From an uncultured Candidatus Saccharibacteria bacterium (GTDB lineage Bacteria; Patescibacteriota; Minisyncoccia; UBA6257; WO2-44-18), in contig CAYJVO010000001.1 of NCBI GenBank assembly GCA_964373675.1, forward strand, positions 4,327-68,326: 64,000 nucleotides of DNA, written 5' to 3'. Below the pieces are notes generated by a model that was given only the letters and a program-made list of their open reading frames with translations, ran no database searches and had not been told where the DNA came from. Every line of letters starts with the position of its first letter. Positions within the stretch are counted from its first letter, which is position 1. The translations under genes were made by a program, and so were the position numbers. Of the stretch, positions 15,023-58,217 are shown one piece after another.

Positions 15023-16195
15023 ATGAATAAAGAAACCCGAATTTTGTTAACCGGCGGCGGAACCGGCGGGCACATTTATCCGCTGTCGGCCGTCGCCAAA
15101 AAAATTCAGGAACAGACCCCGAATGCGGACATTGCTTATGCCGGCCAGCCAGGCGGTTACCGCGGCATTTTAGAACAGCACAATATAAAAATTTTAAGTG
15201 TGGTCTCCAGCAAGTGGCGCCGTTATTTTTCGCCTTTAAATGTCCTGGAGGTTTTCCGTTTTTTTATTGGCTTCTTGCAGGCGTTTTGGAAGATTTATTG
15301 GTTTATGCCGGACGCTCTTTTTTCCAAAGGCGGTCCCGGCGCCTTACCAATAATTCTTGTCTGCCGATTTTATCTGATACCAATAGTAATTCATGAGTCT
15401 GATGTCATTCCCGGTTTGACCAGCATAATTTCTGCCCGGTACGCTAAAAAAATTTTCCTTGCTTTTGAGGAGGCCGAAGGTTATTTCCAAAATAAAAATA
15501 CTGAGGTTGTGGGACAGCCGGTTAGAGATGAAATCGCCTCTGGCGGATTGCCACCATCGGAAACCAGAAAAATGCTTGGTTTTTCCGCCGATCTACCAAT
15601 GATTTTGGTTATAGGCGGTTCACAAGGATCAACGCGAATTAACGATTTTATTCTTTCTAATCTCAAACTTCTGCTGGAGAAATTTCAAATCTTGCATCAA
15701 ATCGGAGAAAATAATTATAAAGATTACAACCAAGAATATGAAGTGGAAAGCCGGCGATTGAGTCCGTTGCTAAAAAGCCGTTATCATTTTGCCGCTTATT
15801 TAAACAATAGTCATCCATTCACGATGGCCAGTGCTTTGTCAGCGGCAGACGCGGTAATTTCCCGCGGAGGAGCGAGCGCAATATTTGAAATTTCCGCTTT
15901 AGGTAAACCATCAATTCTGATTCCTCTGCCTGAATCCGCCCGCAATCATCAGGAAGCTAACGCTTATGCTTTCCAAAAAACTGGCGCCGCTATTGTAATT
16001 GAAGAAGAAAACCTGAAACCCAATCTCTTTGAAAGTATTTTGGAAAATCTTTTTTCCGCCTCCGGAGGCGGAAAAAATCTCCAGAAATTACAGATGATGT
16101 CCGAAGCGGCTAAAAGATTTTATAAACCCCAAGCAGCAGAAAAAATCGCCTCTTATATATTGAAATTGCTTAATGAAAATAAATATGGCCATTAA
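15023..16195 (+). CDS. murG: UDP-GlcNAc--MurNAc-pentapeptide-undecaprenol GlcNAc transferase
   Basis: ILLTGGGTGGHIYPLSAVA N-terminus and a GT-B fold C-terminal GGSQGS motif. Confidence 0.9.
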   Translation: MNKETRILLTGGGTGGHIYPLSAVAKKIQEQTPNADIAYAGQPGGYRGILEQHNIKILSVVSSKWRRYFSPLNVLEVFRFFIGFLQAFWKIYWFMPDALFSKGGPGALPIILVCRFYLIPIVIHESDVIPGLTSIISARYAKKIFLAFEEAEGYFQNKNTEVVGQPVRDEIASGGLPPSETRKMLGFSADLPMILVIGGSQGSTRINDFILSNLKLLLEKFQILHQIGENNYKDYNQEYEVESRRLSPLLKSRYHFAAYLNNSHPFTMASALSAADAVISRGGASAIFEISALGKPSILIPLPESARNHQEANAYAFQKTGAAIVIEEENLKPNLFESILENLFSASGGGKNLQKLQMMSEAAKRFYKPQAAEKIASYILKLLNENKYGH

Positions 16196-16206
16196 AATGA
16201 GCAGGT

Positions 16207-16332
16207 CTACAAAATACGAAATCTTACCAATATACGAAACCGATTTGGTATATTCGCCTGCCTGCCGGCCTTGCTCCGCCGAAGCGCTACGCGAAGGCGA
16301 TGCAGGCAGGTACTATTTTCGTATTTAGTAAC
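16207..16332. repeat. Family B element, long variant with GC-rich inner palindrome, copy B2
   Basis: Near-identical to 46728-46858. Outer arms CTAC.AAATACGAAA/TTTCGTATTT.GTAG and inner arms CCTGCCTGCC...GCAGGCAGG. Fills the murG-gltX spacer. Confidence 0.75.
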
Positions 16333-16338
16333 TTATAG

Positions 16339-17790
16339 ATGATTACAAAATTAAAAAAAATCCGAACCCGCATCGCGCCTTCGCCAACGGGTTATTTTCA
16401 TATTGGCACTGCCCGAACCGCGCTTTTTAACTGGCTTTTTACCAAACAGCAGGGCGGGAAATTTATTTTGCGCATTGAGGATACTGATTTAGAGCGATCC
16501 GATAAAAAATTTGAAAAGGATATTATGGAGAATCTTAAATGGCTTGGCCTGGATTGGGACGAAGGACCAGTCGCAGCTGCGACTGGTCAAAGATCAAAGA
16601 TCAAAGGTCAAATGTATGTAGGCGACTGCGGGCCGTATCGGCAAAGTGAACGATTAGAAACCTATAAAAAATATATAAACAGACTACTGGATCAAAAACT
16701 TGCTTATTATTGCTTTTGCACCCCGGAAGAACTGGAAGAACAGCGGCAAGCAATGTTGGTTCAGGGATTAGCCCCTAAATACAGCGGAAAATGCAGCGCC
16801 TTGAGTGCAATAATAACCAAAAAGAATCTAGCAGTTCAAAAATCGCACATTATTCGTTTTCGGGTGCCGCAAACAACCGTAACTTTTAAGGACATTATTC
16901 GCGGCCCCATCAGCTTTGATGCCTCATTGATTGGAGATATCGCTATCGCTAAAGATCCGGAAATTCCGCTTTATAATTTCGCCGTGGTGGTGGACGACTA
17001 TGAAATGGAAATTTCTCATGTGATTCGCGGCGAAGACCATGTTGCCAATACCCCAAAACAAATCTTACTTCAAAAAGCTTTAGAATTTCCCCAGCCGGAA
17101 TACGCCCATCTCCCTCTTATTTTGGACCCGGATCGGCATAAAATGTCCAAAAGATATTCCGCTGTTTCGGTAGCCGAATATCGCAACCAGGGATATTTGC
17201 CGGAAGCAATGATTAATTTTATGGCGCTGCTTGGCTGGCATCCCGGACCGGTAACACCAAAAGGTTTTGAAAGAGAAATTTTCAGCTTACAAGAATTAAT
17301 TCAAGAGTTTAATTTGGAGCGAGTGCAAAAAGCCGGCGCGGTTTTCAATATTGAAAAACTAAACTGGATTAACGCGCAGTATATTAAAAAACTTTCAGAT
17401 AAAGAGCTGGCGAAAATGCTTAATTTTAAAAACCTTAAAGTGATTGCTTTAGCGAAAGACAGAATGAAAAACCTTTCGGATTTTCACGAATTAGCTGACT
17501 GGGCAATAAAATTGCCGGATTATTCCGCAGACCTTTTAATCTGGAAGCAAACATCGAAAGAGGTGATAAAGGAAAATTTAAGGCGGGCGCTGGAAATTTT
17601 AGAATCCGGAGAAAGAAATGACTTAATGAAGCTGGCAGAAGAACGGGGCAGGGGTGAGGTATTGTGGCCGGTCCGCGCCGCTCTATCCGGCAAAGACGCG
17701 TCTCCGGGCCCGCTGGAAATGATTGAAGCTTTGGGTAAAAAAGAAGCAATCAAGCGGCTGAAAATCGCCATCAAAAAACTTGAATCATGA
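16339..17790 (+). CDS. gltX: Glutamyl-tRNA synthetase
   Basis: Class I HIGH-type SPTGYFHIGTART and a KMSKR motif. 483 aa. Confidence 0.9.
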   Translation: MITKLKKIRTRIAPSPTGYFHIGTARTALFNWLFTKQQGGKFILRIEDTDLERSDKKFEKDIMENLKWLGLDWDEGPVAAATGQRSKIKGQMYVGDCGPYRQSERLETYKKYINRLLDQKLAYYCFCTPEELEEQRQAMLVQGLAPKYSGKCSALSAIITKKNLAVQKSHIIRFRVPQTTVTFKDIIRGPISFDASLIGDIAIAKDPEIPLYNFAVVVDDYEMEISHVIRGEDHVANTPKQILLQKALEFPQPEYAHLPLILDPDRHKMSKRYSAVSVAEYRNQGYLPEAMINFMALLGWHPGPVTPKGFEREIFSLQELIQEFNLERVQKAGAVFNIEKLNWINAQYIKKLSDKELAKMLNFKNLKVIALAKDRMKNLSDFHELADWAIKLPDYSADLLIWKQTSKEVIKENLRRALEILESGERNDLMKLAEERGRGEVLWPVRAALSGKDASPGPLEMIEALGKKEAIKRLKIAIKKLES

Positions 17791-22250: not shown

Positions 22251-22700
22251 GTGGATGCTTCAGCGTTCATTCGTCTTTGGGGAAACGAAGGACAGATTTA
22301 TTTAGTACTGAACGATCAGAAAAAAATAATTAACAAACTATCCAGTGATGTAATCGGAATGAAACCGATCGGCTGGGGACTGCCCGGCGGGGGAGTTAAA
22401 GACGGAGAAGATCCTTTGCAGGCGGCTCTAAGAGAACTGCGCGAAGAAACTCCGTTTAATGCGCGCAGAATTAACCCAAAGCCGGTGATAGTAAATAAAA
22501 AAAATGGCCATCATATCAATTTTGTGTTTGACGCTTATGATCCGGAGGAAATTAAACCCGATTGGAAACCGACGGATGATCCTAAACTGGGAGTGATCGG
22601 CGGCAGATGGTTTACAATTGAGGAATGCGAAGCCGAGGAGCGTGACGGCATACTCATTTATAAATCACACCTTCGTTATATTTTTCATAGGGAACAATAA
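22251..22700 (+). CDS. NUDIX hydrolase
   Basis: Nudix box GGGVKDGEDPLQAALRELREETPF (Gx5Ex7REUxEExGU). Confidence 0.8.
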   Translation: MDASAFIRLWGNEGQIYLVLNDQKKIINKLSSDVIGMKPIGWGLPGGGVKDGEDPLQAALRELREETPFNARRINPKPVIVNKKNGHHINFVFDAYDPEEIKPDWKPTDDPKLGVIGGRWFTIEECEAEERDGILIYKSHLRYIFHREQ

Positions 22701-22725
22701 TCCCGCCACGGCGGGATTATTTATT
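22699..22725 (+). terminator. Rho-independent terminator
   Basis: ATCCCGCC-ACG-GCGGGAT hairpin followed by ATTTATT. Confidence 0.6.
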
Positions 22726-22810
22726 CTCCTTCGCCGAAAACCCCGGACGGCCTACTCCGCCGAAGTAGCTTCAGTTACGAAGGCTGGATAAGGCCGTGGA
22801 GTTTCATTTG
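22721..22810 (+). repeat. Family A element, copy 2
   Basis: Differs from copy 1 by a few substitutions, including C to T giving GTAGCT/AGTTAC, which stays G:U-compatible. Confidence 0.6.
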
Positions 22811-26668: not shown

Positions 26669-26723
26669 AAGGTAAAAAGTCTATAAAGTCCCTAAAGTAA
26701 TTTATAAACTTTATAGAGGTGAG

Positions 26724-26812
26724 GGTATTCTATTTTTGCGATCGCTGGGATAAAATACCTAAATACTTAACTAACTAATAGGCTTTAAGGACTTGATGGA
26801 CTTTTCACTAAA
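26724..26812 (+). repeat. Family C ~90-110 bp element, copy C1
   Basis: GGTATTCTATTTTTGCGATCGCTGGGATAAAATACCTAAATACTTAACTAACTAAT...GGACTTGATGGACTTTTCACTA. An inverted copy lies at 40163-40249 and a partial copy at 61014-61070. Contains the 8-bp palindrome GCGATCGC. Confidence 0.7.
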
Positions 26813-28706
26813 ACTTATAGATAAATATAGATTTCCCGGCTCTTGCGTAAGGTTTATATGGTTCGGTGAGCCATTCGTATTCATCAGCCGGATTGCGCTG
26901 ACCGGCACCCAGTCTTCCTTTCGCCCCCTGAATCGTATTTATGGAAACCGCTAGCCATTCTATGCCGGCTTCTTCTTTGGGATTTCCCTTCGCAGAATTC
27001 CATAATTCCGCCGTTTCACCTAAATAATAATTTGGGTTGCTGCCGCCAAAATAGTCCACCGCAATCTTCTTAATGTCATTGTCCTGGCCATTGTCATTGT
27101 TTTGTTCAGCTACCCATGTCGCTAATCGCTTAAGATCTTGTCCCCAATCATAGTTGGAATCCACAACCCGCAAATAACCCTTGGAAGCGCCGCCGCCCAG
27201 AAAGTTAAAGTAAGAAAGAAAATTGGGGTAAACGATAATCGTTGATGCCAGAAACCAACCCAGTAAAATCGCCAAAACAAGGGCTTTAATTACCAAACCG
27301 GTAAATTCGCCAATCACCGCCATCAGCCGGACAATTTTGTTTTTATAACTCAAAACCTCTTCCAAGCTGAAAAATCGTTTTAAAACTCCGACGGCCAGGA
27401 TGTACGTAAACGGCATAGTCGGCAAAAGATGCCGGACACCGATGTTCAAAATACTGGTTATACTGGAGAGCCAGTAGATTACTACAAACAAAATCATCGC
27501 AAATTCGCTAAAATGAGTAGTCAGATACTCAAACACAATCAGCGATCTTTTAAATAGGGTGGCGAAGAGGCCGCGAAAAACTCCCGCTAGTCCTGTTATT
27601 ATGCCAAAAATAATGATTAAAAGACTCGGTAGGGGTTCTTTCAGCAAAAAAACAACCGGAAAATAATACCACCATCCTTCGTTGGAAACCTCGTCAAGAA
27701 AATAAGCAGTATTGCCGCCAGCCGCCCGCTGGGAAACCATTAAAAGGCCGAGCAAATATTCGCCGATTGGTCGTAAAACATGGTTACTGCTCATCCAGGC
27801 GACGGAATCGGCTAAAAACCGCGGCGTGAAAGTTCTTAGCAAGTTTTCAGCGTCACCAACTTGTTTTTCAATTGGGTAATTCCAAGTTAAAATCCCATAA
27901 ACTAAATAAACGGCGGCGAAACCTATCAAAAAAATCATTGCCAAAGAACGAAAATAGCGGTAAAAACGGATGGCGAAGCGCCGCATACGGCCTCGCTGAA
28001 GGTCCGTCATCTGCCAATCCCGAAAAACGCTCACTGCATAAAAAACCGTCATTAAAATAATAAAATATGGCCCAAGCAAAAAATTGGAAAATTTGAAAAG
28101 CTGGGCGATTCCAAATGCTAAGCCGGCAAAAATCAGATGCCGGCGAATGGGTGAAGATAAAAATTTTAAGAAAAAATAAACTGCCAAAAATACTCCCAAA
28201 GCGGCACCGATATCAGTAGTAACATAATGACCGTGAGCCAGTACGGTAGGAGAGAAAGCAAATAAAAAAACCGGCAGCAGCGCCCACCAGCGGCCGATCA
28301 ATTCTTTGGCAAATAAATAAATCAATATGGTTAAAATCAGTGTCAGTAAAATTGGCCCGAGACGGGACGAAAAAATAATCTTGTCTGCGTTATTGCCGCT
28401 TTCGTAAAGAAATTTAGTTCCGAGCGTCCATTGTTCATTAATGCCGGTTTGCCATTCTGCCACATCTCGCGAAAAATTCAGGTTCTGAAAAAGCAGGGGC
28501 AATCCTGCAAGAATTTTAACTAAAGGCGGGTGTTCTGGATTCAACCGGTAGTCCAAATAACGCACGTAACCGTAGCCCGCTGGTATATGGGCGAGTTCGT
28601 CCATAATCGCTGAATCGCCTCGGCTAGCACCTAGCATCCATAGACCGCTTACTATGACCATAACGATGACCAATGACCAACGAATAAAAGTGGAAAGGCG
28701 ATGCAT
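26808..28706 (-). CDS. GT-C fold ArnT/PMT-like (GT39/GT83) membrane glycosyltransferase
   Basis: 632 aa polytopic protein. First loop DELAHIPAGYGYVRYLDYRLNPEHPPLVKIL carries the DE...PPL signature of PMT/ArnT enzymes. Confidence 0.75.
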   Translation of the reverse strand: MHRLSTFIRWSLVIVMVIVSGLWMLGASRGDSAIMDELAHIPAGYGYVRYLDYRLNPEHPPLVKILAGLPLLFQNLNFSRDVAEWQTGINEQWTLGTKFLYESGNNADKIIFSSRLGPILLTLILTILIYLFAKELIGRWWALLPVFLFAFSPTVLAHGHYVTTDIGAALGVFLAVYFFLKFLSSPIRRHLIFAGLAFGIAQLFKFSNFLLGPYFIILMTVFYAVSVFRDWQMTDLQRGRMRRFAIRFYRYFRSLAMIFLIGFAAVYLVYGILTWNYPIEKQVGDAENLLRTFTPRFLADSVAWMSSNHVLRPIGEYLLGLLMVSQRAAGGNTAYFLDEVSNEGWWYYFPVVFLLKEPLPSLLIIIFGIITGLAGVFRGLFATLFKRSLIVFEYLTTHFSEFAMILFVVIYWLSSITSILNIGVRHLLPTMPFTYILAVGVLKRFFSLEEVLSYKNKIVRLMAVIGEFTGLVIKALVLAILLGWFLASTIIVYPNFLSYFNFLGGGASKGYLRVVDSNYDWGQDLKRLATWVAEQNNDNGQDNDIKKIAVDYFGGSNPNYYLGETAELWNSAKGNPKEEAGIEWLAVSINTIQGAKGRLGAGQRNPADEYEWLTEPYKPYARAGKSIFIYKF

Positions 28707-30479: not shown

Positions 30480-30492
30480 AGAAAAAGACCCG

Positions 30493-31608
30493 CTAAACGG
30501 GTCTTTTTGCTAAATCATAATTTCTCCAGCCGGGTTCTCCGGTAATTTCGCGTACTTCGCCAAGCCAATCAGGAATTTCTACCCGATCGTTTTCTTTTGT
30601 AAGCTCCACTTCCAAAAGCATTAGTCCCCAACAATGATACGGCTCCAGGAATAAATCCAGTTCAAAATACTGGTTTTTCCAGATAAAACAGCATCTTTCT
30701 TTGTGGATTGTTTTCCGTTCGGGGTCCCTCTGCGATAAAAGTTCATAATATCGCTGGGCGCTGATTTGAGTTTCCCGCTCTTCCCGCGCTTTTGCTGAAG
30801 CCGACGGTATTTTAAAAGTCTGGTAATAATCTGCCGCTTCGCCTTGCTTTCGCTTTCTGATCCTGCCAGCGGTTGCCCCGCCGTCTTTGCTAACAAGATA
30901 CGCCTGATCAATGTTTAACCGTTGATAAGGAACCGGCAGTTTTTGAATACTGAATCCTTTTACTAAAAACTTTCTTTTAATTTCCAGCGAAACTGGCATG
31001 CCGATGGATTTTTGCGCCGCTCTTATCAACCGCTTCATTTTTTCTTCAAACAAGAAGGAATTATCAATAATTACCAGGTGCGGATGACCGACCCAGGCTT
31101 CCTGGGTGCGCTTATCGGTCTTACGCGCCTCTTCCGGAGTTTCATAGCGAGTAGGATTATCTAAATTATAAAATTTTTCTTTGCCATCAGCAGCCGTTAC
31201 TAAATGAAAAACCGCCTCATAACGCTTATCCCTCAAACCCACTAAACTCCAGTGATTTTTATTCAGCAGTAGCTCAAATTCTTCGGGACGCAAATAAGCA
31301 GCCATGTCCATACAACCGCGATCCATCAATAAAACCTGCTTTTTCCCACCTTTAGCACGGAGTAAATTACCGTAATGCCGCTCGTCGGACATCTGCTTTT
31401 TAATAATAGTTTCTTCAAACTTCAAATAATCCCGGCGTGAAACCCGCCGCAAAAGCTCTTGCGGCCCTATACCGCCATTAATAATTTGTGTAGCTACCTC
31501 GGGAACAACCACTACTGACAATCCATAATCGGAGAGTTTTTCATAAAGATAGTGAAGTCCAGTAGTCTTTCCAGAGCACGGCCCGCCAGTCAGGACTATT
31601 CGCTTCAT
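30493..31608 (-). CDS. P-loop NTPase (AAA_28/NadR-kinase-like) fused to a C-terminal CYTH (triphosphate tunnel metalloenzyme) domain
   Basis: N-terminal Walker A IVLTGGPCSGKTT...VVVVPEVATQII and Walker B LLMDRG. C-terminal LEIKRKFLV ... LLEVELTKENDRVEIPDWLGEVREITGEPGWRNYDLAK matches the CYTH N-terminal signature (ExExK-like) and C-terminal signature (EhEh...P.W.G.EVT..P.Y.N..LA). Confidence 0.7.
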   Translation of the reverse strand: MKRIVLTGGPCSGKTTGLHYLYEKLSDYGLSVVVVPEVATQIINGGIGPQELLRRVSRRDYLKFEETIIKKQMSDERHYGNLLRAKGGKKQVLLMDRGCMDMAAYLRPEEFELLLNKNHWSLVGLRDKRYEAVFHLVTAADGKEKFYNLDNPTRYETPEEARKTDKRTQEAWVGHPHLVIIDNSFLFEEKMKRLIRAAQKSIGMPVSLEIKRKFLVKGFSIQKLPVPYQRLNIDQAYLVSKDGGATAGRIRKRKQGEAADYYQTFKIPSASAKAREERETQISAQRYYELLSQRDPERKTIHKERCCFIWKNQYFELDLFLEPYHCWGLMLLEVELTKENDRVEIPDWLGEVREITGEPGWRNYDLAKRPV

Positions 31609-31713: not shown

Positions 31714-32001
31714 ATGGCGTTTAAAAAGGAATGCTTGATAGAAAAAGCTACAGAAGTAGAGATATTGGACGCGCTTCGTAAAGCAGGCCATCCGTTGGAT
31801 AGACACGAATTTTTTTTACACATTTTTCTTAATAGATGCGAACTTATTGGCTACGATGGCAGTAATATAGAAAGATCGGTGACTCTTTTGGAATTTTACG
31901 ATAAATGCATAGCGGGGAATGTATTACAGACAGTATGGGCTATGATTGACCAAGGGAAAATCTGCTTAAACTTTGATAGAAAATTGGAATTGCCCAAATA
32001 A
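31714..32001 (+). CDS. Hypothetical protein
   Basis: 95 aa with no recognisable domain. Followed directly by family A copy 3. Confidence 0.4.
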   Translation: MAFKKECLIEKATEVEILDALRKAGHPLDRHEFFLHIFLNRCELIGYDGSNIERSVTLLEFYDKCIAGNVLQTVWAMIDQGKICLNFDRKLELPK

Positions 32002-32014
32002 CATTGGGCTTTTT

Positions 32015-32105
32015 TATTCTCCTTCGCCGAAAACCCCGGGCGGCCTACTCCGCCGTAGTAGCCTACGGCTACGAAGGCTGGATAAGACCGTGGAGCTTCA
32101 TTTCC
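32015..32105 (+). repeat. Family A element, copy 3
   Basis: Carries the CCGTAG/CTACGG and GTAGCC/GGCTAC variants, which are compensatory relative to copies 1 and 2. Confidence 0.6.
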
Positions 32106-32131
32106 AACTGCTATCCCGCGGGATAGCAGTT
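32106..32131. repeat. Family D 'CTGCTATC' hairpin, copy D1
   Basis: AACTGCTATCC-CGCG-GGATAGCAGTT perfect hairpin. The same stem sequence recurs in D2 and D3. Confidence 0.6.
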
Positions 32132-32223
32132 TCGGGCTACTGAATTATTCATTAAAGTAAAATTTACCCGCCCCCTAAGACGGTTTTTTGTTTTTCAAAA
32201 AGAAAAACCGGAAATGTTCGCAC

Positions 32224-32275
32224 TTTGACGCGTCAAAACACTGCTATCATGCGTGATAGCAGTGTTTCTTTTACG
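32224..32275 (+). repeat. Family D composite: TTGACGCGTCAA palindrome plus CACTGCTATCA hairpin (D2), terminator-like
   Basis: TTTGACGCGTCAAAACACTGCTATCA-TGCGT-GATAGCAGTGTT then TCTTTTAC. Near-exact inverted copy at 36231-36279. Confidence 0.65.
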
Positions 32276-32464
32276 TGTGGAAGAGATACAAATTGAAAGA
32301 TACTGGCATTAACTCTTCTACGATTATTGTTTTCCCCCAAAAGCCAAGCGTTAACGGCTTTACTCAAATTGACTAAGCGCCGTACAAATTAGGCGCAATT
32401 TGGTTTCTTTTATTAAAGACATCCGTTCTCTGGTAGTGTCAAATTCGCGGTTTTTTATTTACTT

Positions 32465-32496
32465 TTGTCATCGTCATTGTTATAGTCATGGTCATG
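32465..32496 (+). repeat. Family E 'TGTCAT(C/A)GT..ATAGTCAT' motif abutting a start codon
   Basis: TTGTCATCGTCATTGTTATAGTCATGGTCATG, with the ychF ATG inside it. Related copies at 29066-29098 (before the GTG at 29101) and 46145-46174 (before rplR, opposite orientation). Confidence 0.4.
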
Positions 32497-33504
32497 AAAT
32501 TATCCATCGGCATCGTCGGGCTGCCGAACGTCGGCAAGTCCACCCTGTTCAAAATCCTCACTAAAAACGAGGTGAATATCGCTAATTATCCGTTTTGCAC
32601 CATTGATCCGAATGTGGGTATCGTGACTGTTCCAGATGAACGGCTACAGAAACTCGCGGCCATGAGCAAATCCGCCAAGATCATTCCGGCCGTGGTGGAA
32701 TTTTATGATATTGCCGGCCTAGTTAAAGGCGCTTACAAAGGCGAGGGGTTGGGAAATCAATTTTTGTCTCATATTCGCGAAACCCAGGCGATCGTGATGG
32801 TTCTCCGCTGTTTTGGAGGAGAAGAAATTATCCACGTGGAAAATTCCGTGGACCCAATCCGCGATATGGATATCATCAACGCCGAATTAGCGCTGAAAGA
32901 CCTGGATACTATTGAAAAAGTTTGGAAAAAAGCGGAAGGAGAAGCGAAAACCGGAAACAAACAATCGCAAAAGGATCTGGAAGCGCTTAAGCTCGCGAAA
33001 GCCGCCCTAGAACAAGGAAAAAACCTAACCGAGAAAAATCATTCTGACATTCTTGAGAATGTAAGAATGAAAGAACTCAATCTTTTAATGTCTAAAAAAC
33101 AGCTGTATTTACTGAACGGCAAGCCAGAAGATGTTTCCGAAGAATTAAAAAAGAAAATCGCCGAACGGGGGGGGGATTATATTGTTGTAGACTTATCAGC
33201 TGCCGTGGATATTCCGGAATTGGTAAAAAAAGCGTACGAAATTCTAGATTTAATCAGCTTTTTCACCACCGGCGAGGACGAAACCCGCGCTTGGACTATC
33301 AAGCGGGGGACTAAGGCGCCGCAAGCCGCCGGTGTCATCCACACTGATTTTGAAAAAAAGTTCATTCGTGCTGAAACGGTAAATTGGCAAAAATTGTTGG
33401 AAACCGGCTCTTGGTCCGCCGCCAGGCAAAAAGGATTATTGCGCCAAGAGGGAAAAGAATACATCGTCCAAGACGGCGATGTAATAGAGGTTAAACACGG
33501 GTAA
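32488..33504 (+). CDS. ychF: Ribosome-binding ATPase YchF (Obg-like ATPase)
   Basis: G1 GLPNVGKST, NYPFCTIDPN, DIAGLVKGA, a C-terminal TGS domain, and AWTI..G..APQAAG.IHTDFE.GFIRAE. Confidence 0.9.
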   Translation: MVMKLSIGIVGLPNVGKSTLFKILTKNEVNIANYPFCTIDPNVGIVTVPDERLQKLAAMSKSAKIIPAVVEFYDIAGLVKGAYKGEGLGNQFLSHIRETQAIVMVLRCFGGEEIIHVENSVDPIRDMDIINAELALKDLDTIEKVWKKAEGEAKTGNKQSQKDLEALKLAKAALEQGKNLTEKNHSDILENVRMKELNLLMSKKQLYLLNGKPEDVSEELKKKIAERGGDYIVVDLSAAVDIPELVKKAYEILDLISFFTTGEDETRAWTIKRGTKAPQAAGVIHTDFEKKFIRAETVNWQKLLETGSWSAARQKGLLRQEGKEYIVQDGDVIEVKHG

Positions 33505-33534
33505 TTGGTTTTTAAAATGTTATAATAATTTATT

Positions 33535-33942
33535 ATGGCGGAAGTGAAAAGCCCCGAACAAAAACATTCTGCTTTAGAACGGGAAATTCAAATCCTCTCG
33601 GCCGAATTAAAAACTCTTAAACCTGAAACGGAAGCGGAAAAAGAAGCGCTGAAATCGCTTTTAAAAAGCCGAATTTATGGCTCCGCAACTCCCTCAATAC
33701 CAGGGGTACTTAAAAAAACCGAAGTTAAAGACAGACCAAAAATTCTTCCCGAATATTTAGAAACCGCCCCTAAAGACATCAAATTAGAAGTTGAAAAACT
33801 GCTGGATCTTGCTTGGCATAAAGGCATCGCTGCTGCTGCCCAAGAAGCGAAAAAAAACGAACCCTTAATAATTGATGGTTTTCATGATGCTCTTACTGAC
33901 AAACTTTACGAAGAATTCAAAAAGCGAAAACTGATTAAATGA
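33535..33942 (+). CDS. Hypothetical coiled-coil protein
   Basis: 135 aa, K/E-rich. The stop overlaps the start of the downstream coupling-ATPase gene, indicating translational coupling. Confidence 0.45.
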   Translation: MAEVKSPEQKHSALEREIQILSAELKTLKPETEAEKEALKSLLKSRIYGSATPSIPGVLKKTEVKDRPKILPEYLETAPKDIKLEVEKLLDLAWHKGIAAAAQEAKKNEPLIIDGFHDALTDKLYEEFKKRKLIK

Positions 33943-36218
33943 GCGTTTTGATTATTGGGTATCTAGCCGTAATTATTCTGGCAATCGGGGCCGCGGTATT
34001 TTTTATTCGCCGCTGGGCCTTACGAAAAACTTTTTTAGCGACCTTAAATTTAAAACTGCTCTTAATTCGTCTGTCAAAAAAACCCTTACCAGCGGGCGCA
34101 ACTGCCGAGGAACCGCTAAAAGAAATTAATGTTTCTGGCCAGCTATTCAGCATTTTAGCCGGCTCTAAAATACCGGTCGCTTTTGAATTAGCTGTTCATA
34201 ATGTTGGCGAGGAAATCCATTTTTATGCGGCAGTGCCGGTTAACGCGATTGAATTTGTCAAAAGACAAATTCAAGGATTCTGGCCGGATGCGCAGGTAGA
34301 GTTAAGCGATGATTACACGATTTTTAATTCTGCCGGCGCAATAGAGGCCGTGTATCTTAAACAAAAACGGGAATATTTTCTGCCGGTCCGCACTTACGCC
34401 GAAGCGCAAATAGACACTTTTCTGCCGATTTTAAGCGATTTTTCCAAACTGCAGACAATTAGCGAAGGATTGGCAATTCAAGTCATTATTAAGCCGGCGC
34501 CTTCATCGGTTAAAAAAGCGTTCATTGCTCATATTATCAACCTTAAAAAAAAGCAGGAAAAAGAACCTTCGCCGGAGGACGCGGAAAATATTAAATTATC
34601 CGAACAAAAAATTTCCAAACCGCTATTTTCAGCCAATTATCGCATTATTGCCTCTGCGCCTATACCGCTTAGAGCTCGGGAAATTCTGGATGGCGCGCTG
34701 ACTTCTCTGGTTCAATTTAGCGCGCCGCTCCGCAACGAATTTAAAGCCATTAGAGTCAAAAATCCCAAAAACCTGATAGCCAAATTTGTTTTTCGGCAAT
34801 TTGATGATCGCGAAACGATGATTTTAGGACTGGATGAACTGGTCAGCATCTTTCATTTGCCGACTTCTGCTACCGAAGTACCGCGTATTACGTGGGTAAA
34901 AGCGAGAGAGGCTCCTGCGCCGGCCGACCTGCCCAAATCAGGGGTTTTAATCGGGGAAAATATTTTCCGCGGCGATGCCAAACCGGTACGTATTGACGAC
35001 GATGATCGCCGCCGTCATGTCTATATCGTCGGTCAAACCGGCACCGGCAAGTCCAACCTTTTAATTAATATGGCCGCCAACGATATTGAAGCCGGAAAGG
35101 GGGTGGCGATTATTGATCCTCATGGCGATTTGATTGATTATCTAATCGGTCTCATTCCAGTTGACCGGAGAAACGATGTAATCTTGTTTGATCCCGGCGA
35201 TCTTCTGCGTCCCATCGGGCTTAATATGCTGGAATACAGCCCCGATCGGCCGGAGGAAAAAACCTTTATTGTCAATGAAATGCAGAGTATTTTTAACAAA
35301 CTCTTCTTGGCTGAAACGATGGGACCGATGTTTGAACAGTATATGCGCAATGCTCTTGTTCTCCTTATGGATGATATTACGCATCCAGCGACCTTGATGG
35401 AAGTGCCTCGTATATTTACCGATGCCGACTTTCGTCAAAGAAAACTCGCTCAAGCCACCAATCCGGCGGTGATAGATTTTTGGACTAAAGAAGCGCCCAA
35501 AGCCGGCGGTGAAGCGGCGCTTGCCAATATGACGCCTTATATTACTTCTAAGTTCAATAATTTTATTGCCAACGATTATGTCCGGCCGATCATTGGCCAA
35601 AAAAAATCATCTTTTAATTTCCGCCAAGTGATGGATGAAGGAAAAATCTTGCTGGTTAATCTTGTTAAAGGCAAAATAGGGGATATTAACGCCAATCTTT
35701 TAGGTATGATTGTTGTCGGTAAACTGCTGATGGCGGCACTCTCCCGCGTTGATCTGCCAGAAATTAAAAGACGCGACTTTAATTTGTATATTGATGAATT
35801 TCAAAACTTTACTACTGAATCCATTGCTACCATTCTTTCTGAAGCTCGCAAATACCGTCTTAATTTAGTCATTGCCCATCAATTTATCGCTCAACTCAGC
35901 GAAAAAATCCGCGATGCCGTTTTCGGCAATGTCGGCTCCAGTATTGCTTTTAGAATTGGCGCGGATGACGCAGAGTATTTAGATAAACAATTTGCGCCAG
36001 TTTTTTCCAAAGATGATTTGATAAATATTGATAACTTCAACGCTTATGTAAAGCTTTTGGTTGGCGGCAAAACCACTAAACCATTTAATATCCGTACTCT
36101 TCCGGCTCCAGTAGGGGATGAAGCTGTAAAACGAACTATCCGGGAATGGTCCAGTCAAACCTACGGCCGCGACCGACAGGAAGTAGAGACAGAGATTTTA
36201 ACCCGTTTGCGCACATAA
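33939..36218 (+). CDS. Type IV secretion/conjugation coupling-protein-like ATPase (TrwB/TraD/VirD4 family, TM-anchored)
   Basis: N-terminal TM (VLIIGYLAVIILAIGAAVFFI). Walker A HVYIVGQTGTGKSNLL...GVAIIDPHGDL...DVILFDPGD matches the TrwB_AAD_bind pattern. Walker B LYIDEFQNF is followed by AHQ. Confidence 0.7.
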   Translation: MSVLIIGYLAVIILAIGAAVFFIRRWALRKTFLATLNLKLLLIRLSKKPLPAGATAEEPLKEINVSGQLFSILAGSKIPVAFELAVHNVGEEIHFYAAVPVNAIEFVKRQIQGFWPDAQVELSDDYTIFNSAGAIEAVYLKQKREYFLPVRTYAEAQIDTFLPILSDFSKLQTISEGLAIQVIIKPAPSSVKKAFIAHIINLKKKQEKEPSPEDAENIKLSEQKISKPLFSANYRIIASAPIPLRAREILDGALTSLVQFSAPLRNEFKAIRVKNPKNLIAKFVFRQFDDRETMILGLDELVSIFHLPTSATEVPRITWVKAREAPAPADLPKSGVLIGENIFRGDAKPVRIDDDDRRRHVYIVGQTGTGKSNLLINMAANDIEAGKGVAIIDPHGDLIDYLIGLIPVDRRNDVILFDPGDLLRPIGLNMLEYSPDRPEEKTFIVNEMQSIFNKLFLAETMGPMFEQYMRNALVLLMDDITHPATLMEVPRIFTDADFRQRKLAQATNPAVIDFWTKEAPKAGGEAALANMTPYITSKFNNFIANDYVRPIIGQKKSSFNFRQVMDEGKILLVNLVKGKIGDINANLLGMIVVGKLLMAALSRVDLPEIKRRDFNLYIDEFQNFTTESIATILSEARKYRLNLVIAHQFIAQLSEKIRDAVFGNVGSSIAFRIGADDAEYLDKQFAPVFSKDDLINIDNFNAYVKLLVGGKTTKPFNIRTLPAPVGDEAVKRTIREWSSQTYGRDRQEVETEILTRLRT

Positions 36219-36230
36219 GACCCTTTTTTC

Positions 36231-36279
36231 CACTGCTATCATACATACTAGCAGTGTTTTGACGCGTCAAAACACTGCT
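36231..36279. repeat. Family D composite (D3), inverted relative to D2
   Basis: CACTGCTATCA-TACATAC-TAGCAGTG hairpin plus the perfect 30-bp palindrome AGCAGTGTTTTGACGCGTCAAAACACTGCT. The palindrome encodes the last 4 codons and stop of the downstream minus-strand gene. Confidence 0.65.
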
Positions 36280-38015
36280 TTAACAGTTTCCCAATACTCC
36301 GGATAACCCTTTTCTTTCATAAAGTACCACCACTCCGCGCCCCAGAGATAAAATTTATCAAAACCGGTCTTGCGGGCAAAATTTAAATTGGAACGTAATC
36401 GTTGAAGATCAAACAGTTTTAATTGCTTATTTAAAGATAAATCTGGTAAAAGTTTTGGTCCCCACGGCTCGGCTTGCAGTTCTACCACCGCATAAGGGTG
36501 CGCTAGCAAAGTTTTTAAACGATAATACCAAGCAGGAAAAAGTTGTGTAATTTGTCCAAAAGTATCGTTGTAAACATAACGATAAAGTGTGATGCCCAGC
36601 AAATCCCCGTATTTAAGCGCCCGATTCCAACTGCCAAATTCTCCGCTTTCCGTCACCATCACTGGATGCGTCAGATCCAGCGACTTAACCAATGATACTT
36701 CGTTTTTAAAAAGTCTCGGATCAAACTCACCGCATTCTCCAAACATAAAATATGGCTCGTTTTCTACCTGCCAAACTTCTAAAGTCGGGTGGTTTTTGTA
36801 GCGATCAACCAACGTTTTTAAATACTCAAGTAATTCCTGATTCCTAGTTCCTAATTCATTATTTTTTATCCACTCAGGTTTAAAGCACTCGGGCCAGCGT
36901 GGGACTTTCTGTCCGATCGCCAAAATTACTTTCGCGTCGCGCTTCGCCGCCTCATTCATCTGCCAATCTAAATCGGTGAAATTAAACTTATCATCTTCCG
37001 GTTCAATCTCGTCCCAGTAAGCAACCAGTCTTAAATTTTTAATTTTTAAATCGTCCAGTAAAGCAAGGTAGTTCTCTTTCCAGTCCAAATCCAAATTCCT
37101 GCTGAATCTTGCAGAAAAAGTGACTCCCCATTGGATATCCTGTTCTGCGGCTATTGGAATACTTTTTAGGTAACTGGCTACCACAAGAACAATGATGCCG
37201 ATGACAACAAGAGTAGTAGCGGCAATTTTTTCTTTCAAAATCCGGCCGTGAAAACTTGCTTTGAGTATTAAAAGCGCGGCGGCGAAAATTATCAAAAAGC
37301 GAAAGCTGGAACTCGCATCCACCAACGCCGGGTGACCCAAAAACAAAGCCATTGTAACCAAAAAAGCTCCGCCGGCTGACGCCGCGCGGTTTAAAAGATA
37401 CAAAATGATGTTTTTAGGTTTTTCAACGGATTTAGTAATGAGTGCCTGCCGAATTTTTGGAAACAAAAGCAAAGAAATAGCGGAAAGAAACACGCCGGCC
37501 TGTACGGCTACTAAACCGGTAATGAAGTTGGTTTGCAAGAAAACCGATTTATGCAGAGCGTTGCTTAAACCAAAAAGACCGCTGGCTGTTAGCGCCGTAC
37601 CAATGAAACGCCAGGAAAAAATCGCGCTGCCGACTGCCAAAAGACCGAATGCCACTAGCTCGCCAGTTGAAAGGTCTACGCCTAAAATAAAAAATGAAAA
37701 GATTAAAGTAAAAATAGGGGAGAAGCCGCTGATGGCCGAAAGTGCTTCAATGGCTTCCGCGTTTTTTAATGCCTTAAAACCAAAATAAAGTGCCCAAAAA
37801 AATGCCGCTCCTGCCACAAAAGCCATTACTGTTGCAATCAACGAAGGCAGCTGAAATCCAAAAGGCGCCAAAAACAGCGGCAGGAACGCTAAAATACCTA
37901 CTCCAAATGCGTACTGCAGCGGACGAGGGACAGCTCGTTTAAGTAAAACCTTATCAAAAATCGCAGATATCGCGATTAAAGCTTGGCCAAAAAGCGCTGA
38001 TAATAACCAAATCAT
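36267..38015 (-). CDS. Fusion of N-terminal polytopic membrane domain and C-terminal clan GH-A (GH5-like) glycoside hydrolase
   Basis: About 8 TM helices over the first ~280 aa. The TIM-barrel domain then carries acid/base VWQVENEP (NEP) and candidate nucleophile VMVTESG. Confidence 0.6.
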   Translation of the reverse strand: MIWLLSALFGQALIAISAIFDKVLLKRAVPRPLQYAFGVGILAFLPLFLAPFGFQLPSLIATVMAFVAGAAFFWALYFGFKALKNAEAIEALSAISGFSPIFTLIFSFFILGVDLSTGELVAFGLLAVGSAIFSWRFIGTALTASGLFGLSNALHKSVFLQTNFITGLVAVQAGVFLSAISLLLFPKIRQALITKSVEKPKNIILYLLNRAASAGGAFLVTMALFLGHPALVDASSSFRFLIIFAAALLILKASFHGRILKEKIAATTLVVIGIIVLVVASYLKSIPIAAEQDIQWGVTFSARFSRNLDLDWKENYLALLDDLKIKNLRLVAYWDEIEPEDDKFNFTDLDWQMNEAAKRDAKVILAIGQKVPRWPECFKPEWIKNNELGTRNQELLEYLKTLVDRYKNHPTLEVWQVENEPYFMFGECGEFDPRLFKNEVSLVKSLDLTHPVMVTESGEFGSWNRALKYGDLLGITLYRYVYNDTFGQITQLFPAWYYRLKTLLAHPYAVVELQAEPWGPKLLPDLSLNKQLKLFDLQRLRSNLNFARKTGFDKFYLWGAEWWYFMKEKGYPEYWETVKAVF

Positions 38016-39028
38016 ATAGGGATATAGAATTTAGGATTTAGGATTATTTTTTGGTAATCAAAGTAACTCTGCCGTGGTTTTCTGGCTAAATTATTGTCAT
38101 AATCAATTTCTACTAATCCATAGCGCGGTTTAAAACCTCTGTGCCATTCAAAATTATCAATTAACGACCAGTGGAAATAACCGCGTAGATCTATGCCAGT
38201 TTGCACCGCTTTAGCCATATTTTCTGTCATTTCCGCCAGCAGTTTTTGCCTTTTTTGATCTAAGGAATCATCAATACCGTTTTCAGTTATATAAATTGGC
38301 TTTTTATAAACATCATTTAGCCATTGTAATAATGGGATTAGTTTTTGAGGCCTGCCATAATAATTTACGCCGATAAAATCTTGAGTGCTGGCGACTCGGC
38401 TAAAAAATCTTTTACTGGTATTATTTTCCGCAATACCAACCTGCGCATCTGGATTAATTGATTTGATAATTTTATAAGCTAATCCGTGAGCCCGGGCCAA
38501 ATTTTTTAAAACCTTAAAATAGGCGAGGGAGGCGATCTTTTGTGGCGGCCAGCGGCCGACTAAGTACGAATTATTGGCGTAAACCGTCGGCTCGTTAATG
38601 GTTATCCAAAAATGCACGCTCTCCCCGAAATTTTCCGCTACCAATTTCACAAACCGCTCAAAGTAGGGGAGTATGTCCGGATTTGCCCAGCCGCCCATTT
38701 TTGCAACCCATATTGGAAAAGTAAAATGCCAAAGCGTAAGCCATGGTTCCGGACCGCGCTGTTTTAAGGCGGAGATGTATTTTTTGTAATGTTCTATCGC
38801 GAGATCGCTAAATCGGCCTTCTTCCGGCTCAATCCGCGCCCACTCAATGGAAAAACGAAAGGCATTTAATCCCAATTTTTTTGCTAAATCAAAATCCTCA
38901 TCGTAGCGGTTATAGTGATCCACGGCTTTTCCGACGTCGTAGCTCGCCGTCCAATCGTTAGTTATTCCGCCCTCCGTCTGATAGGCGGAAATCGCCGCGC
39001 CCCAAAAAAAATTTTCCGGAAAATGCAT
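38012..39028 (-). CDS. Glycoside hydrolase family 1 (beta-glucosidase-like), short form
   Basis: FFWGAAISAYQTEG, acid/base TINEP and nucleophile YITENG. At 338 aa it is shorter than typical GH1 (~450 aa). Its stop overlaps the upstream GH-A gene. Confidence 0.8.
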   Translation of the reverse strand: MHFPENFFWGAAISAYQTEGGITNDWTASYDVGKAVDHYNRYDEDFDLAKKLGLNAFRFSIEWARIEPEEGRFSDLAIEHYKKYISALKQRGPEPWLTLWHFTFPIWVAKMGGWANPDILPYFERFVKLVAENFGESVHFWITINEPTVYANNSYLVGRWPPQKIASLAYFKVLKNLARAHGLAYKIIKSINPDAQVGIAENNTSKRFFSRVASTQDFIGVNYYGRPQKLIPLLQWLNDVYKKPIYITENGIDDSLDQKRQKLLAEMTENMAKAVQTGIDLRGYFHWSLIDNFEWHRGFKPRYGLVEIDYDNNLARKPRQSYFDYQKIILNPKFYIPI

Positions 39029-39079
39029 ATACTTTAAAGTATATCAACAAATTTTTACCCCGCCATGGCGGGGTTTATA

Positions 39080-40155: not shown

Positions 40156-40162
40156 GAAGTTT

Positions 40163-40249
40163 TAGTGAAAAGTCCATCAAGTCCTTAAAGTCCATTAGTT
40201 AGTTAAATATTTAGGTATTTTATCCCAGCGATCGCAAAAATAGAATACC
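40163..40249 (-). repeat. Family C element, copy C2 (inverted orientation)
   Basis: Reverse complement of C1 over about 87 bp. Abuts the nuclease start codon on one side and the murC stop on the other. Confidence 0.7.
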
Positions 40250-40256
40250 TCCACAA

Positions 40257-46727: not shown

Positions 46728-46858
46728 TGACTACGAAATACGAAATCTTACCAATATACGAAACCGATTTGGTATATTCGCTTGCCTGCCGGCCTTGCTC
46801 CGCCGAAGCGCTACGCGAAGGCGATGCAGGCAGGTACTATTTTCGTATTTGGTAGCTA
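46728..46858. repeat. Family B element, long variant, copy B3 (between rplF and rpsH)
   Basis: About 95% identical to 16207-16332. Fills the 137-bp rplF-rpsH spacer from start codon to stop codon. Confidence 0.75.
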
Positions 46859-47239
46859 CTACCATATTTCAAATAGTATTACTCCCCCGACCTTGGCTTT
46901 GCGCGCATCTTTAAAAGACATGATGCCTTGGGGTGTGGAAATCACTCCTAATCCATAACCCTGTCTTACCTTTTTTAAATCGCGGTAGCCCGCATATATT
47001 CGGCGCGACGGTTTGCTCACAAATTTAATTTCTTCAATTATGCCCCCGCCGTCTTTGTATTTTAATTTAATTTCAATAATTCTCTTGGGCATCCTCCCTT
47101 TCTTTTCTGCCGATTCTATAAACTTATTTTCGGCCAGAATTTGAGCAATAGCTAAATCCATACCAGAATAAGCCGTTTTTACGGTTTCTTTTTTCGCCTT
47201 TTGGGCGTTTTTGATTTTAATTAAGAGATCTGTGTACAT
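46859..47239 (-). CDS. rpsH: 30S ribosomal protein S8
   Basis: MYTDLLIKIKNAQKAKKETV N-terminus. Confidence 0.9.
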   Translation of the reverse strand: MYTDLLIKIKNAQKAKKETVKTAYSGMDLAIAQILAENKFIESAEKKGRMPKRIIEIKLKYKDGGGIIEEIKFVSKPSRRIYAGYRDLKKVRQGYGLGVISTPQGIMSFKDARKAKVGGVILFEIW

Positions 47240-50520: not shown

Positions 50521-50528
50521 TGTAATAT

Positions 50529-50604
50529 GGCTACGAAATACGAAATTTTACTAATATACGAAATTGGTTTTGTATATTCGTACTATTTTCGTATTTAGTG
50601 GCTG
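50529..50604. repeat. Family B element, short variant, copy B4 (rpsC-rplV spacer)
   Basis: GGCTACGAAATACGAAATTTTACTAATATACGAAATTGGTTTTGTATATTCGTACTATTTTCGTATTTAGTGGCTG. Near-identical to 52366-52438. Confidence 0.75.
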
Positions 50605-51105
50605 TTATACGCTTTTCCTTCTAAATAATCTCTTGAAGAATCCCGGCCTTTCTTGTTTGACTTCTTTTTCTTTTTGCTGCTGCGGTTTTAGAGCCTTCGC
50701 CTTCGGTACTTTCTTTTTCTTTGCTTTTTTTGGAGGCGGCATAATTACAAACCGGCTCGCCAGTGGCTGAGCCGCTTCCTCCAAAGTTAAAATTACATGG
50801 CTCATTTTTTTCTGAATCGGGGTCGCTCGTCCCTGGGCCCGCGGCATGAATCTTTTGAGCATTGGGCCCTGATTAACAATGATTTGCTTAATAAACAGCC
50901 GGCTAGCATCCAGTTTTTGATTATTTTTTGCATTAGCAACCGCTGAATGCAGTAACTTTAATAATGGCTTGGCAGATCGCTGACTTCTCATTAATAATTG
51001 GGCTTCGGCTTCCTGAATCGGCAAACCTCGTAAAATATCGGCGATCAACCTGACTTTGCGAGGCGCAATACTCAAATTGTTTAATTTTACTGTTTCTTGG
51101 TTCAT
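50605..51105 (-). CDS. rplV: 50S ribosomal protein L22 with Lys-rich C-terminal extension
   Basis: L22 core (APRKVRLIADILRG), then ~55 aa of extra K/P/Q-rich sequence. Confidence 0.85.
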   Translation of the reverse strand: MNQETVKLNNLSIAPRKVRLIADILRGLPIQEAEAQLLMRSQRSAKPLLKLLHSAVANAKNNQKLDASRLFIKQIIVNQGPMLKRFMPRAQGRATPIQKKMSHVILTLEEAAQPLASRFVIMPPPKKAKKKKVPKAKALKPQQQKEKEVKQERPGFFKRLFRRKSV

Positions 51106-52365: not shown

Positions 52366-52438
52366 AACTACGATACGAAATTTTACTAATATACGAAATT
52401 GGTTTTGTATATTCGTACTATTTTCGTATTTGGTAGCC
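52366..52438. repeat. Family B element, short variant, copy B5 (rplB-rplW spacer)
   Basis: Near-identical to B4. Fills the spacer from the rplW stop to the rplB start. Confidence 0.75.
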
Positions 52439-52439
52439 A

Positions 52440-53773: not shown

Positions 53774-53844
53774 TGGATTTTTACAAAAACAACCGCTAGA
53801 CAGCGGTTGTTTTTGCACTACTGACTAGCCAGAATATTGTACGC

Positions 53845-54171: not shown

Positions 54172-54174
54172 TGC

Positions 54175-54253
54175 GATCCGCTACTAAATACGAAATTTTT
54201 ACGAATATACTAAATGTTTTTCGTACTTTCGTAAATTTTCGTATTTAGTAGCC
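54175..54253. repeat. Family B element, short variant, copy B6, directly abutting the rpsJ start codon
   Basis: CTACTAAATACGAAATTTTTACGAATATACTAAATGTTTTTCGTACTTTCGTAAATTTTCGTATTTAGTAGCC. The same element with the same junction sequence (GCGATCCG-CAT) precedes rpsG at 58218-58295. Confidence 0.75.
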
Positions 54254-58214: not shown

Positions 58215-58217
58215 TGC

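Follow-up and report, generated by a model that had tools for sequence, protein, structure and literature searches.

Two kinds of described systems are among the closest to the locus presented here. Type IV coupling proteins (T4CPs; VirD4/TrwB/TraD) combine an N-terminal membrane anchor with a P-loop domain carrying Walker A and Walker B motifs. A 2025 survey counted 5,713 VirD4-like homologues in 2,918 Patescibacteria genomes, only 148 of them near virB4, and its authors considered the VirD4-like gene to be possibly exapted in these bacteria (PMC12102498). The second kind comprises the repetitive extragenic palindromes and bacterial interspersed mosaic elements (REP/BIME) of Enterobacteria and Pseudomonas, short intergenic palindromes that often lie between convergent genes, occur in several copies per genome and form mosaics with other motifs. 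Multi-copy palindromic sites such as parS, NBS and the KorB operators provide, in addition, an analogy for the operators of dimeric helix-turn-helix (HTH) repressors of the TrpR/YerC type. In this study, we analyzed a 4-kb stretch (positions 32,224 to 36,279) within 64,000 nt from an uncultured Candidatus Saccharibacteria bacterium (contig CAYJVO010000001.1); the latter, at its full length, is called the window. Between palindromic repeats, named D2 on the left and D3 on the right, the 4-kb stretch carries ychF, a gene for a 135-aa protein and a gene for a VirD4-like ATPase, and an earlier note had raised the possibility that this segment moves or inverts. We conclude instead that it is an ordinary, vertically inherited chromosomal operon. 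We further consider it probable, though far from certain, that its borders are occupied by members of two dispersed palindrome families, H and P, which are recognized by a protein, can also serve as terminators and neither mobilize nor invert the genes between them.

The fixed position of the genes carries the first part of this conclusion. The pair formed by the 135-aa open reading frame (ORF) and the ATPase gene is found at the same place and in the same orientation in all six relatives compared (L001, L002, L144, L145, L146 and L147), with Alr-PMT on one side, a 261-aa gene followed by MurC, Map, Adk and SecY on the other, and collinear blast matches. In each of the six, the ATPase gene is immediately preceded by an orthologue of the partner ORF (46-51% identity), and in none of them does H, P or a shared hairpin occur beside the pair. 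The comparison with relatives that the earlier note had proposed thus speaks against a mobile segment, as the genes are present and the repeats are not. In addition, ychF stands directly upstream of the pair in four of seven genomes (the window, L001, L145 and L147), is displaced in L144 and does not occur at the locus in L002 or L146, which shows that the 4-kb segment does not form a constant unit. Variable genes are situated outside of D2 and D3: two glycoside hydrolase (GH) genes to the right of D3 are present at this position in the window only, and the gene set between a 132-aa ORF and ychF varies by genome.

Nor does the surrounding DNA have the features of a mobile element. The window encodes housekeeping functions (ScpAB, MraY, FtsW, MurG, tRNA synthetases, GreA, a ribosomal-protein cluster, EF-G/Tu, ThyA and GroEL); the 52 window proteins scanned either have such functions or are without assignment, and no recombinase, integrase, transposase, pilus or competence domain was detected among them. 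The GC content is flat, ranging from 0.37 to 0.52 over 26 to 43 kb without any anomaly. There is no target-site duplication, as the flanks GTTCGCAC and TTAACAGT differ. A transposon, a miniature inverted-repeat transposable element (MITE) or a genomic island thus fails on three counts, namely the lack of this duplication, the cargo pair at the same site in all relatives and the flat GC. In the case of an invertible segment, the inverted end repeats are present, but only one orientation relative to PMT and MurC/SecY is seen in the six relatives.

The repeats at the ends are nevertheless real, as the earlier note had stated. A repeat search of the window returned arms of 41 nt that are 90% complementary (32224-32264 and 36231-36271, spacing 3966 nt), and the third related hairpin (D1) is a perfect palindrome. 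Their description as near-exact inverted copies stands with respect to these arms, yet the ends are equally an exact 22-nt direct repeat (TTTGACGCGTCAAAACACTGCT, at 32224 and 36258) and the right-hand H copy has decayed. Since the sub-elements are themselves palindromic, the ends share a direct repeat as well, and 'inverted' is a non-unique description; the inversion between D2 and D3 is confined to the order of P and H. The P 12-mer TTGACGCGTCAA occurs exactly twice in 64 kb (32225 and 36259) against about 0.21 expected; two copies were reached in 1 of 100 shuffles. Six matches to the H arm CACTGCTATC with at most one mismatch were found in the window where 1.36 are expected, five of them inside the three hairpins, and the H core pattern CTATCANNNNTGATAG with at most two mismatches gave seven matches versus 1.2 expected (none of 100 shuffles). 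All three H copies of the window are located at this one locus. The folding energies of the D1, D2 and D3 hairpins are far below those of shuffled sequences (z = -3.6 to -5.1), with -25.5 kcal/mol and z values of -3.6 and -5.1 for D2. At the right end, the strong structure is the perfect palindrome D3b and not the decayed copy D3a, which has five mismatches to the H family consensus. In D3b, the P core has the right arm of D3a on one side and, on the other, the initial 7 nt of a second H that is truncated. D3b wholly fills the 48-nt gap between the convergent stop codons; that it supplies the end of the convergent GH gene was correctly noted before. Rfam, at both gathering and permissive thresholds, gave no match for the mosaic or the hairpins, only two tRNAs elsewhere.

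The ATPase itself belongs to the orphan T4CP homologues of Patescibacteria that have already been described (PMC12102498) and, like most of these, it is encoded far from any virB4. It has a single N-terminal transmembrane helix (residues 1-23), a Walker A motif GQTGTGKS at 365 and a Walker B motif LYIDEFQNF at 616. Pfam gathering thresholds for T4CP domains are passed narrowly (T4SS-DNA_transf 23.2 with a threshold of 20.1, TrwB_AAD_bind 28 with 20.5, TraG-D_C 23.6 with 22), that of DUF87 is passed just as narrowly, and the TrwB_AAD match spans only residues 355-404 around Walker A. The best relative in PDB is TrwB (E = 1e-5), over just 48 residues around the same motif. The scores are far below every NCBIfam T4CP equivalog cutoff, e.g., 38.5 versus 366 for TraD. 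Other differences from the T4CPs are the N-terminal part, where the single helix and a DUF8128 region of about 330 aa replace the usual N-terminus, the constant pairing with a conserved protein of 126-137 aa, and the housekeeping neighbourhood beside the ribosomal-protein/SecY cluster. About 4,000 homologues are detectable, and the best 120 (approximately 60-67% identity) are all labelled Patescibacteria. The gene calls of the earlier note for ychF, the small ORF and the T4CP-like ATPase are borne out by TIGR00092, Pfam and the motif positions, and the translational coupling of the last two by their overlapping stop and start codons. The suggested link to DNA uptake or transfer found no support, as no pilus, competence, VirB4 or relaxase gene is present among the 52 window proteins, nor was virB4 or relaxase linkage seen within ±6 kb in the six relatives. 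The role of the ATPase likely lies outside conjugation, a possibility that was raised in the survey as well (PMC12102498).

The palindromes at the borders form families that extend beyond this locus. H has the core CTATCAcgcgTGATAG (CTATCA-cgcg-TGATAG), usually embedded in CACTG...CAGTG, whereas P, the second family, corresponds to TTGACGCGTCAA. Both are found only between genes, in a handful of related genomes of ultra-small bacteria of the candidate phyla radiation (CPR), and H occurs in tandem, convergent and divergent settings. When species-representative genomes were scanned with a loose hairpin pattern, most of the matches listed were unrelated terminators and the CPR copies stood out. 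The exact palindrome ACTGCTATCACGCGTGATAGCAGT is present in at least 11 copies in a related metagenome-assembled genome (MAG), CAYIBZ01, and related forms exist in other CPR genomes. CAYIBZ01 is syntenic to the window at 70-89% nucleotide identity, including the start of ychF and an AAA_28 gene across the same intergenic slot. This MAG is labelled 'Candidatus Saccharibacteria' and the best matches of the window ATPase are labelled Parcubacteria, Paceibacterota or Wolfebacteria; one of these taxonomic assignments is probably wrong. When metagenomes were scanned with CACTGCTATCA-N4-TGATAGCAGTG, a 26-mer with 22 specified bases, 22 stretches were retrieved, all of H type. The viral contigs scanned for a 22-mer and for H contained no match, and thus no phage origin is indicated.

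Both the pairing and the sequence of H are conserved. The positions outside the core form pairs at a frequency above chance, and the outer stems covary (0.311 versus 0.137 in shuffles, 0 of 500 as high; slid controls 0.11-0.135) with many pair types, as illustrated by an 11-bp extension in L133 and by AAAAACTTTT-core-AAAAGTTTTT in L148. The centre varies mainly by CpG transitions (CGCG, TGCG, CATG, TATG, TATA). The same 16-26-nt sequence is kept even though the proteins of the genomes in question share only about 50-70% identity, and numerous copies are located on promoters or are without a T-tract; what is conserved in H is therefore its specific sequence and not just a hairpin. In three separate lineages (the window, LCOU01/L107 and L130), P is found no more than 60 nt from H, each time with different self-complementary flanks. 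As far as our literature searches showed, H and P are undescribed and represent a lineage-specific variant of the REP/BIME or operator type. Several other known types of site were considered for H and rejected. The density, only three H sites in 64 kb, speaks against a DNA-uptake sequence, and the multiple copies speak against a dif/Xer site. Against an effect of MluI-type restriction sites stand the unremarkable counts of ACGCGT in the window (6 found, 11 expected). A LexA/SOS box, suggested by H near polA and other repair genes, was discarded since the reported LexA motif of Patescibacteria is a direct repeat and the gene linked to H is not LexA.

This linked gene, a clade-specific gene near polA for a TrpR-like HTH protein, provides a candidate for a protein partner. 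In several genomes, H is positioned directly upstream of a gene for a 131-173-aa protein, where it abuts an extended -10 box (TGATATAAT, TGGTATAGT or TGCTATGAT) followed after about 7 nt by the ATG. A second H lies immediately 3' of the gene wherever the contig reaches that end. Complete H-gene-H units are present in L046/L132, L135/L148, L137, L150 and L149; L136 shows, preceded by a gene of about 290 aa, the upstream H and the start of the HTH gene before the contig ends inside it. In all of these relatives, a dyad-symmetric H is thus situated at the promoter of the putative regulator itself (L046/L132, L136, L137, L148, L150 and L149). In three cases (L148/L135, with the coordinates 5288-8119 in L148, L046/L132 and L137), and partly in L136, Pol I is encoded by two genes, one for the 5'-3' exonuclease and one for the polymerase half, and the unit with the TrpR-like gene is inserted exactly between them; in L150 the unit is found one gene further along. 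The HTH proteins of three genomes are 68-70% identical, with H unchanged and the surrounding spacer not alignable. In L149 the HTH protein is only 53% identical, the unit is located elsewhere in opposite orientation and the Pol I halves are adjacent apart from a called 33-aa ORF; the gene is still bracketed, by a palindrome with a symmetric G>A / C>T change. The persistence of H while proteins and spacers diverge points to sequence-specific selection, with the HTH protein as the obvious candidate ligand. PF01371 is the precomputed assignment of most of its homologues, of which there are only 11 among 5.8 billion sequences.

Taken together, we propose that H and P are probably BIME/REP-like, protein-recognized palindromes able to act as terminators, clade-specific dispersed elements of which both intergenic borders of the ychF-ATPase operon happen to hold copies. 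A dimeric protein, for which the TrpR-like one is the most likely candidate, would recognize the specific sequence of H and probably also that of P. Perfect dyad symmetry with conserved half-sites (CTATCA / TGATAG), a copy directly next to the -10 box of the HTH gene (five to six genomes) and solo copies elsewhere are all features of dimeric HTH repressor operators as well. In contrast, a plain duplex operator would not be expected to have long covarying outer stems; many copies are located away from promoters and the second copy is always at the 3' end of the HTH gene, a gene that is not seen in the window. Since the hairpin formed by a perfect palindrome is identical on both strands, H may in addition function as an orientation-independent transcription stop or insulator at gene borders. 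D2 would then shield ychF from upstream read-through, and D3 would terminate the ychF-partner-ATPase operon where it faces the convergent GH gene.

Several observations weigh against this proposal. The similarity of the HTH protein to TrpR is weak (Pfam Trp_repressor, E = 2e-4, below the cutoff) and its structure model is poor (pLDDT 55). A tblastn search did not find the TrpR-like gene in the 64-kb window, and among the 11 homologues found no orthologue could be attributed to the source MAG, so that the cognate protein may be absent or different here. No gene immediately upstream of D2 requires termination, and D3 lacks a T-tract on the minus strand, having only the TTTT that follows D3a on the plus strand after the ATPase gene; terminator function is hence only partly convincing at this locus. 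In the family as a whole, only about half of the H copies carry a T-tract. Finally, the invariance of the core CTAT...ATAG in 33 non-redundant H sites is partly by construction, because the loci were retrieved with core-containing patterns; evidence independent of the pattern comes from the outer-stem covariation, the conservation at orthologous sites and the HTH linkage.

Of the competing explanations, the one we regard as unlikely but still a serious contender is that H, P and R90, a repeat of about 90 nt described below, are non-autonomous selfish palindromes of the REP/MITE type, spread by an enzyme in trans such as a Y1 transposase of the REP-associated (RAYT) type. If they preferentially inserted into the loops of hairpins or into terminators, this would account for the variable complementary flanks, and any terminator or binding role would be secondary. 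Multiple identical copies in one genome, mosaic clustering, the strictly intergenic location, complementary and non-conserved flanks that fit insertion into pre-existing hairpins, and the several copies at contig ends in the related MAG, as expected of assembly-breaking repeats, agree with this explanation, as does the Y1_Tnp gene with its own palindromes in the same variable slot upstream of ychF in L147. H and P resemble REP/BIME in their intergenic placement between convergent and other genes, in the mosaic of terminator, R90, H, P and H at 31992-32267, and presumably in the capacity to serve both as transcript-end hairpins and as protein-binding sites. They differ in being perfect through the centre, with an invariant 16-18-bp core and a covarying outer stem, and the gene tightly linked to H encodes a TrpR-like HTH protein and not a Y1 transposase. 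Moreover, H lacks the GTAG head of REPs, the copy number is low (three in 64 kb, at least 11, and about that number seen, in one MAG; apparently tens rather than hundreds overall), and no Y1_Tnp homologue is present in any H-bearing locus or in the window (tblastn with the L147 transposase). The retention of H at orthologous HTH-gene sites despite proteins of 68-70% identity, together with the symmetric change at another position in L149, points to selection and not to a recent spread. A further possibility, which we consider quite improbable, goes beyond our proposal: H and P may be the recognition sites of a clade-restricted TrpR-like protein in an undescribed CPR palindrome-HTH system, whose HTH gene would move as a cassette of the form H-gene-H (found between the split polA halves in several genomes), while solo copies would be protein-bound hairpin boundaries or even crossover points for accessory genes; at this locus, these would be the two GH genes adjoining D3 and the variable slot that precedes ychF.

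Plain intrinsic terminators, with a likeness that is incidental or due to local duplication, are a very unlikely explanation. D2 was found by a terminator scan, most of the non-CPR matches listed for the hairpin pattern are ordinary terminators with an A-tract, hairpin and T-tract, and perfect hairpins abound at gene ends in the window; the 13-15-bp stems, the A- and T-rich flanks of D2 and the filling of a convergent-gene gap by D3 are common to Rho-independent bidirectional terminators as well. The conservation of one 26-mer across 22 metagenome stretches and several MAGs, however, largely refutes this explanation, as H keeps its sequence between loci and genomes and not its pairing alone, P and H come together in three lineages, T-tracts are often lacking and D2 has no upstream gene to serve. 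The 'shared bidirectional terminators' of the earlier note therefore hold insofar as D2 and D3 are terminator-like on the plus strand, but this does not cover the conserved sequence or the copies without T-tract or on promoters. Just as remote is a function of H and P as pdif/attC-like crossover sites at which accessory genes are inserted beside the core, marking core/accessory junctions rather than a mobile core. The variable genes do lie just beyond the D2-D3 interval, the truncation of the right-hand H in D3 coincides exactly with the beginning of the GH gene, and single small genes are bracketed by H in relatives (the HTH gene and a 190-aa gene in L142). Yet the window and the examined H-bearing loci showed neither a tyrosine nor a serine recombinase, the far end of the GH insertion has no H remnant, the GC is flat, and H, as a perfect palindrome, has no asymmetric spacer to define a crossover. 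The proposition of an invertible or mobile ychF-ATPase module we find hardly tenable. A gene block bounded by inverted short palindromic composites is what invertible segments and pdif-type modules share with this stretch, and homologous recombination between such arms is physically possible. The block differs, however, in its core genes of fixed orientation, its symmetric sites that equally form a direct repeat, and the absence of a recombinase among the 52 window proteins scanned, and the six relatives keep position and orientation without these repeats. An inversion would also part ychF from its promoter region and destroy the last codons and stop of the GH gene.

The features between 31992 and 38015 are collected in Table 1. 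Upstream of ychF, a gene-free region of 486 bp (no ORF of at least 60 aa in 32002-32487) contains, in order, the terminator of a 95-aa ORF as its left border, R90, H, a weak hairpin, P and H. D2 is situated about 190 nt upstream of the promoter-like site of ychF and does not overlap it.

Table 1. Features of the ychF-ATPase locus and its borders (positions in the window)
Feature	Position	Strand	Remarks
Terminator-like hairpin and T-run (GCCCAAATAACATTGGGC + TTTTTTATTC)	31992..32009	+	Ends the 95-aa ORF (31714-32001); motif scan
R90, third copy of the ~90-nt repeat, long imperfect hairpin	32013..32102	+	Adjoins D1; repeat search
D1, H-family perfect 26-bp palindrome AACTGCTATCCCGCGGGATAGCAGTT	32106..32131	strandless	Symmetric A>C / T>G core change
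P palindrome, left copy TTTGACGCGTCAAA	32224..32237	strandless	
D2, H-family hairpin AAACACTGCTATCATGCGTGATAGCAGTGTTT, 14-bp stem	32236..32267	strandless	One central CpG>TpG change, then CTTTTAC; terminator-like on + strand by scan
Promoter-like site TTTACT-17-TGnTATAGT, just upstream of ychF	32458..32486	+	Consensus scan only
ychF, redox-regulated ATPase YchF	32488..33504	+	TIGR00092, 396 bits versus cutoff 279
135-aa partner protein	33535..33942	+	No domain match; TGA overlaps next ATG (ATGA)
VirD4/TrwB-like (T4CP-like) P-loop ATPase, 759 aa	33939..36218	+	
D3a, decayed H copy CACTGCTATCATACATACTAGCAGTG, 8-bp stem, 10-nt loop	36231..36256	strandless	Followed by TTTT
D3b, 30-bp perfect palindrome AGCAGTGTTTTGACGCGTCAAAACACTGCT	36250..36279	strandless	
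Convergent EamA-like/glycoside-hydrolase gene	36267..38015	-	Last four codons and stop (KAVF-stop) in right arm of D3b

R90 is present in three copies in the window, the other two at 4977-5066 and 22720-22809 (96% identical to each other). The copies fold at about -31 to -36 kcal/mol, start directly after a terminator hairpin in each case and have no Rfam match; the first is followed by a P-like hairpin (TTTGAC-ATAATTC-GTCAAA). Partial R90 homologues lie beside H copies in the related MAG (L019, L093), in which H, a second palindrome and sequence similar to R90 are likewise combined. L147 encodes a 231-aa Y1_Tnp protein (1698-2435; IS200/RAYT-like, HUH motif NHYH) in the variable slot that precedes ychF. 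Its gene is preceded by a 37-bp palindrome TTTTAATTTTACGACGTCGGACGTCGTAAAATTAAAA, and a second copy of the core of this palindrome is found inside its own coding sequence (1891-1919). At the other border, the product of the convergent gene (582 aa) is an unusual fusion of an EamA-like membrane region (2-134) with a GH42/GH5-like TIM-barrel region (approximately 314-483). It adjoins a GH1 gene (38012-39028), and both are absent at this position in the six relatives. At the place of D3 and the GH genes, L001 has a gene-free, GC-richer and structured-looking stretch of 720 bp after the ATPase gene (8278-8997), which could hold a non-coding RNA.

Other repeats are distributed over the window. A 98-nt repeat with a GGTATT...AATACC hairpin around GCGATCGC is located at 26719-26816, 40157-40254 (inverted) and 61003-61071, and was not found in any of the loci retrieved. 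The first two copies form an inverted pair (95% complementary) around 13.3 kb of DNA that contains the entire 4-kb stretch; these arms are longer and more similar than D2 and D3, yet relatives have the same gene order and orientation across them. An intergenic, AT-rich family built of TACGAAATACGAAA-like units occurs at 9060-9150, 16205-16349, 46729-46873, 50528-50607, 52373-52442, 54161-54269, 57720-57750 and 58204-58312, with many members inside the ribosomal-protein/EF-Tu region; they may function as promoters or UP-like elements, or simply represent a further dispersed repeat. Perfect hairpins with a stem of at least 9 bp number 22 in the window versus 2.1 expected from shuffles, mostly at gene 3' ends (e.g., 5965-6079, 16050-16077, 22696-22721, 30482-30508, 39057-39074 and 53784-53815). 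Many of them are perfect palindromes with 'loops' of 0-2 nt, and the convergent genes at 5906 and 6116 have three overlapping hairpins between them.

In summary, the outcome for the original claim is negative: the orphan VirD4-like ATPase is a fixed core gene with a conserved small partner and not mobile or switchable cargo, and hypotheses on its role should therefore start from housekeeping rather than conjugation. The surprise lies in the linkage between palindrome and HTH gene rather than in the 4-kb segment. As a by-product of the analysis, a palindrome of 16-26 bp has emerged that is kept across diverged genomes, brackets one small HTH gene and is otherwise scattered at gene borders. The scope is narrow, covering a handful of genomes, and the function we suggest is predicted from sequence. 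To our knowledge, CPR genomes have almost no characterized regulatory or repeat elements, and a defined site together with a candidate binding protein of 147 aa thus provides a practical entry point.

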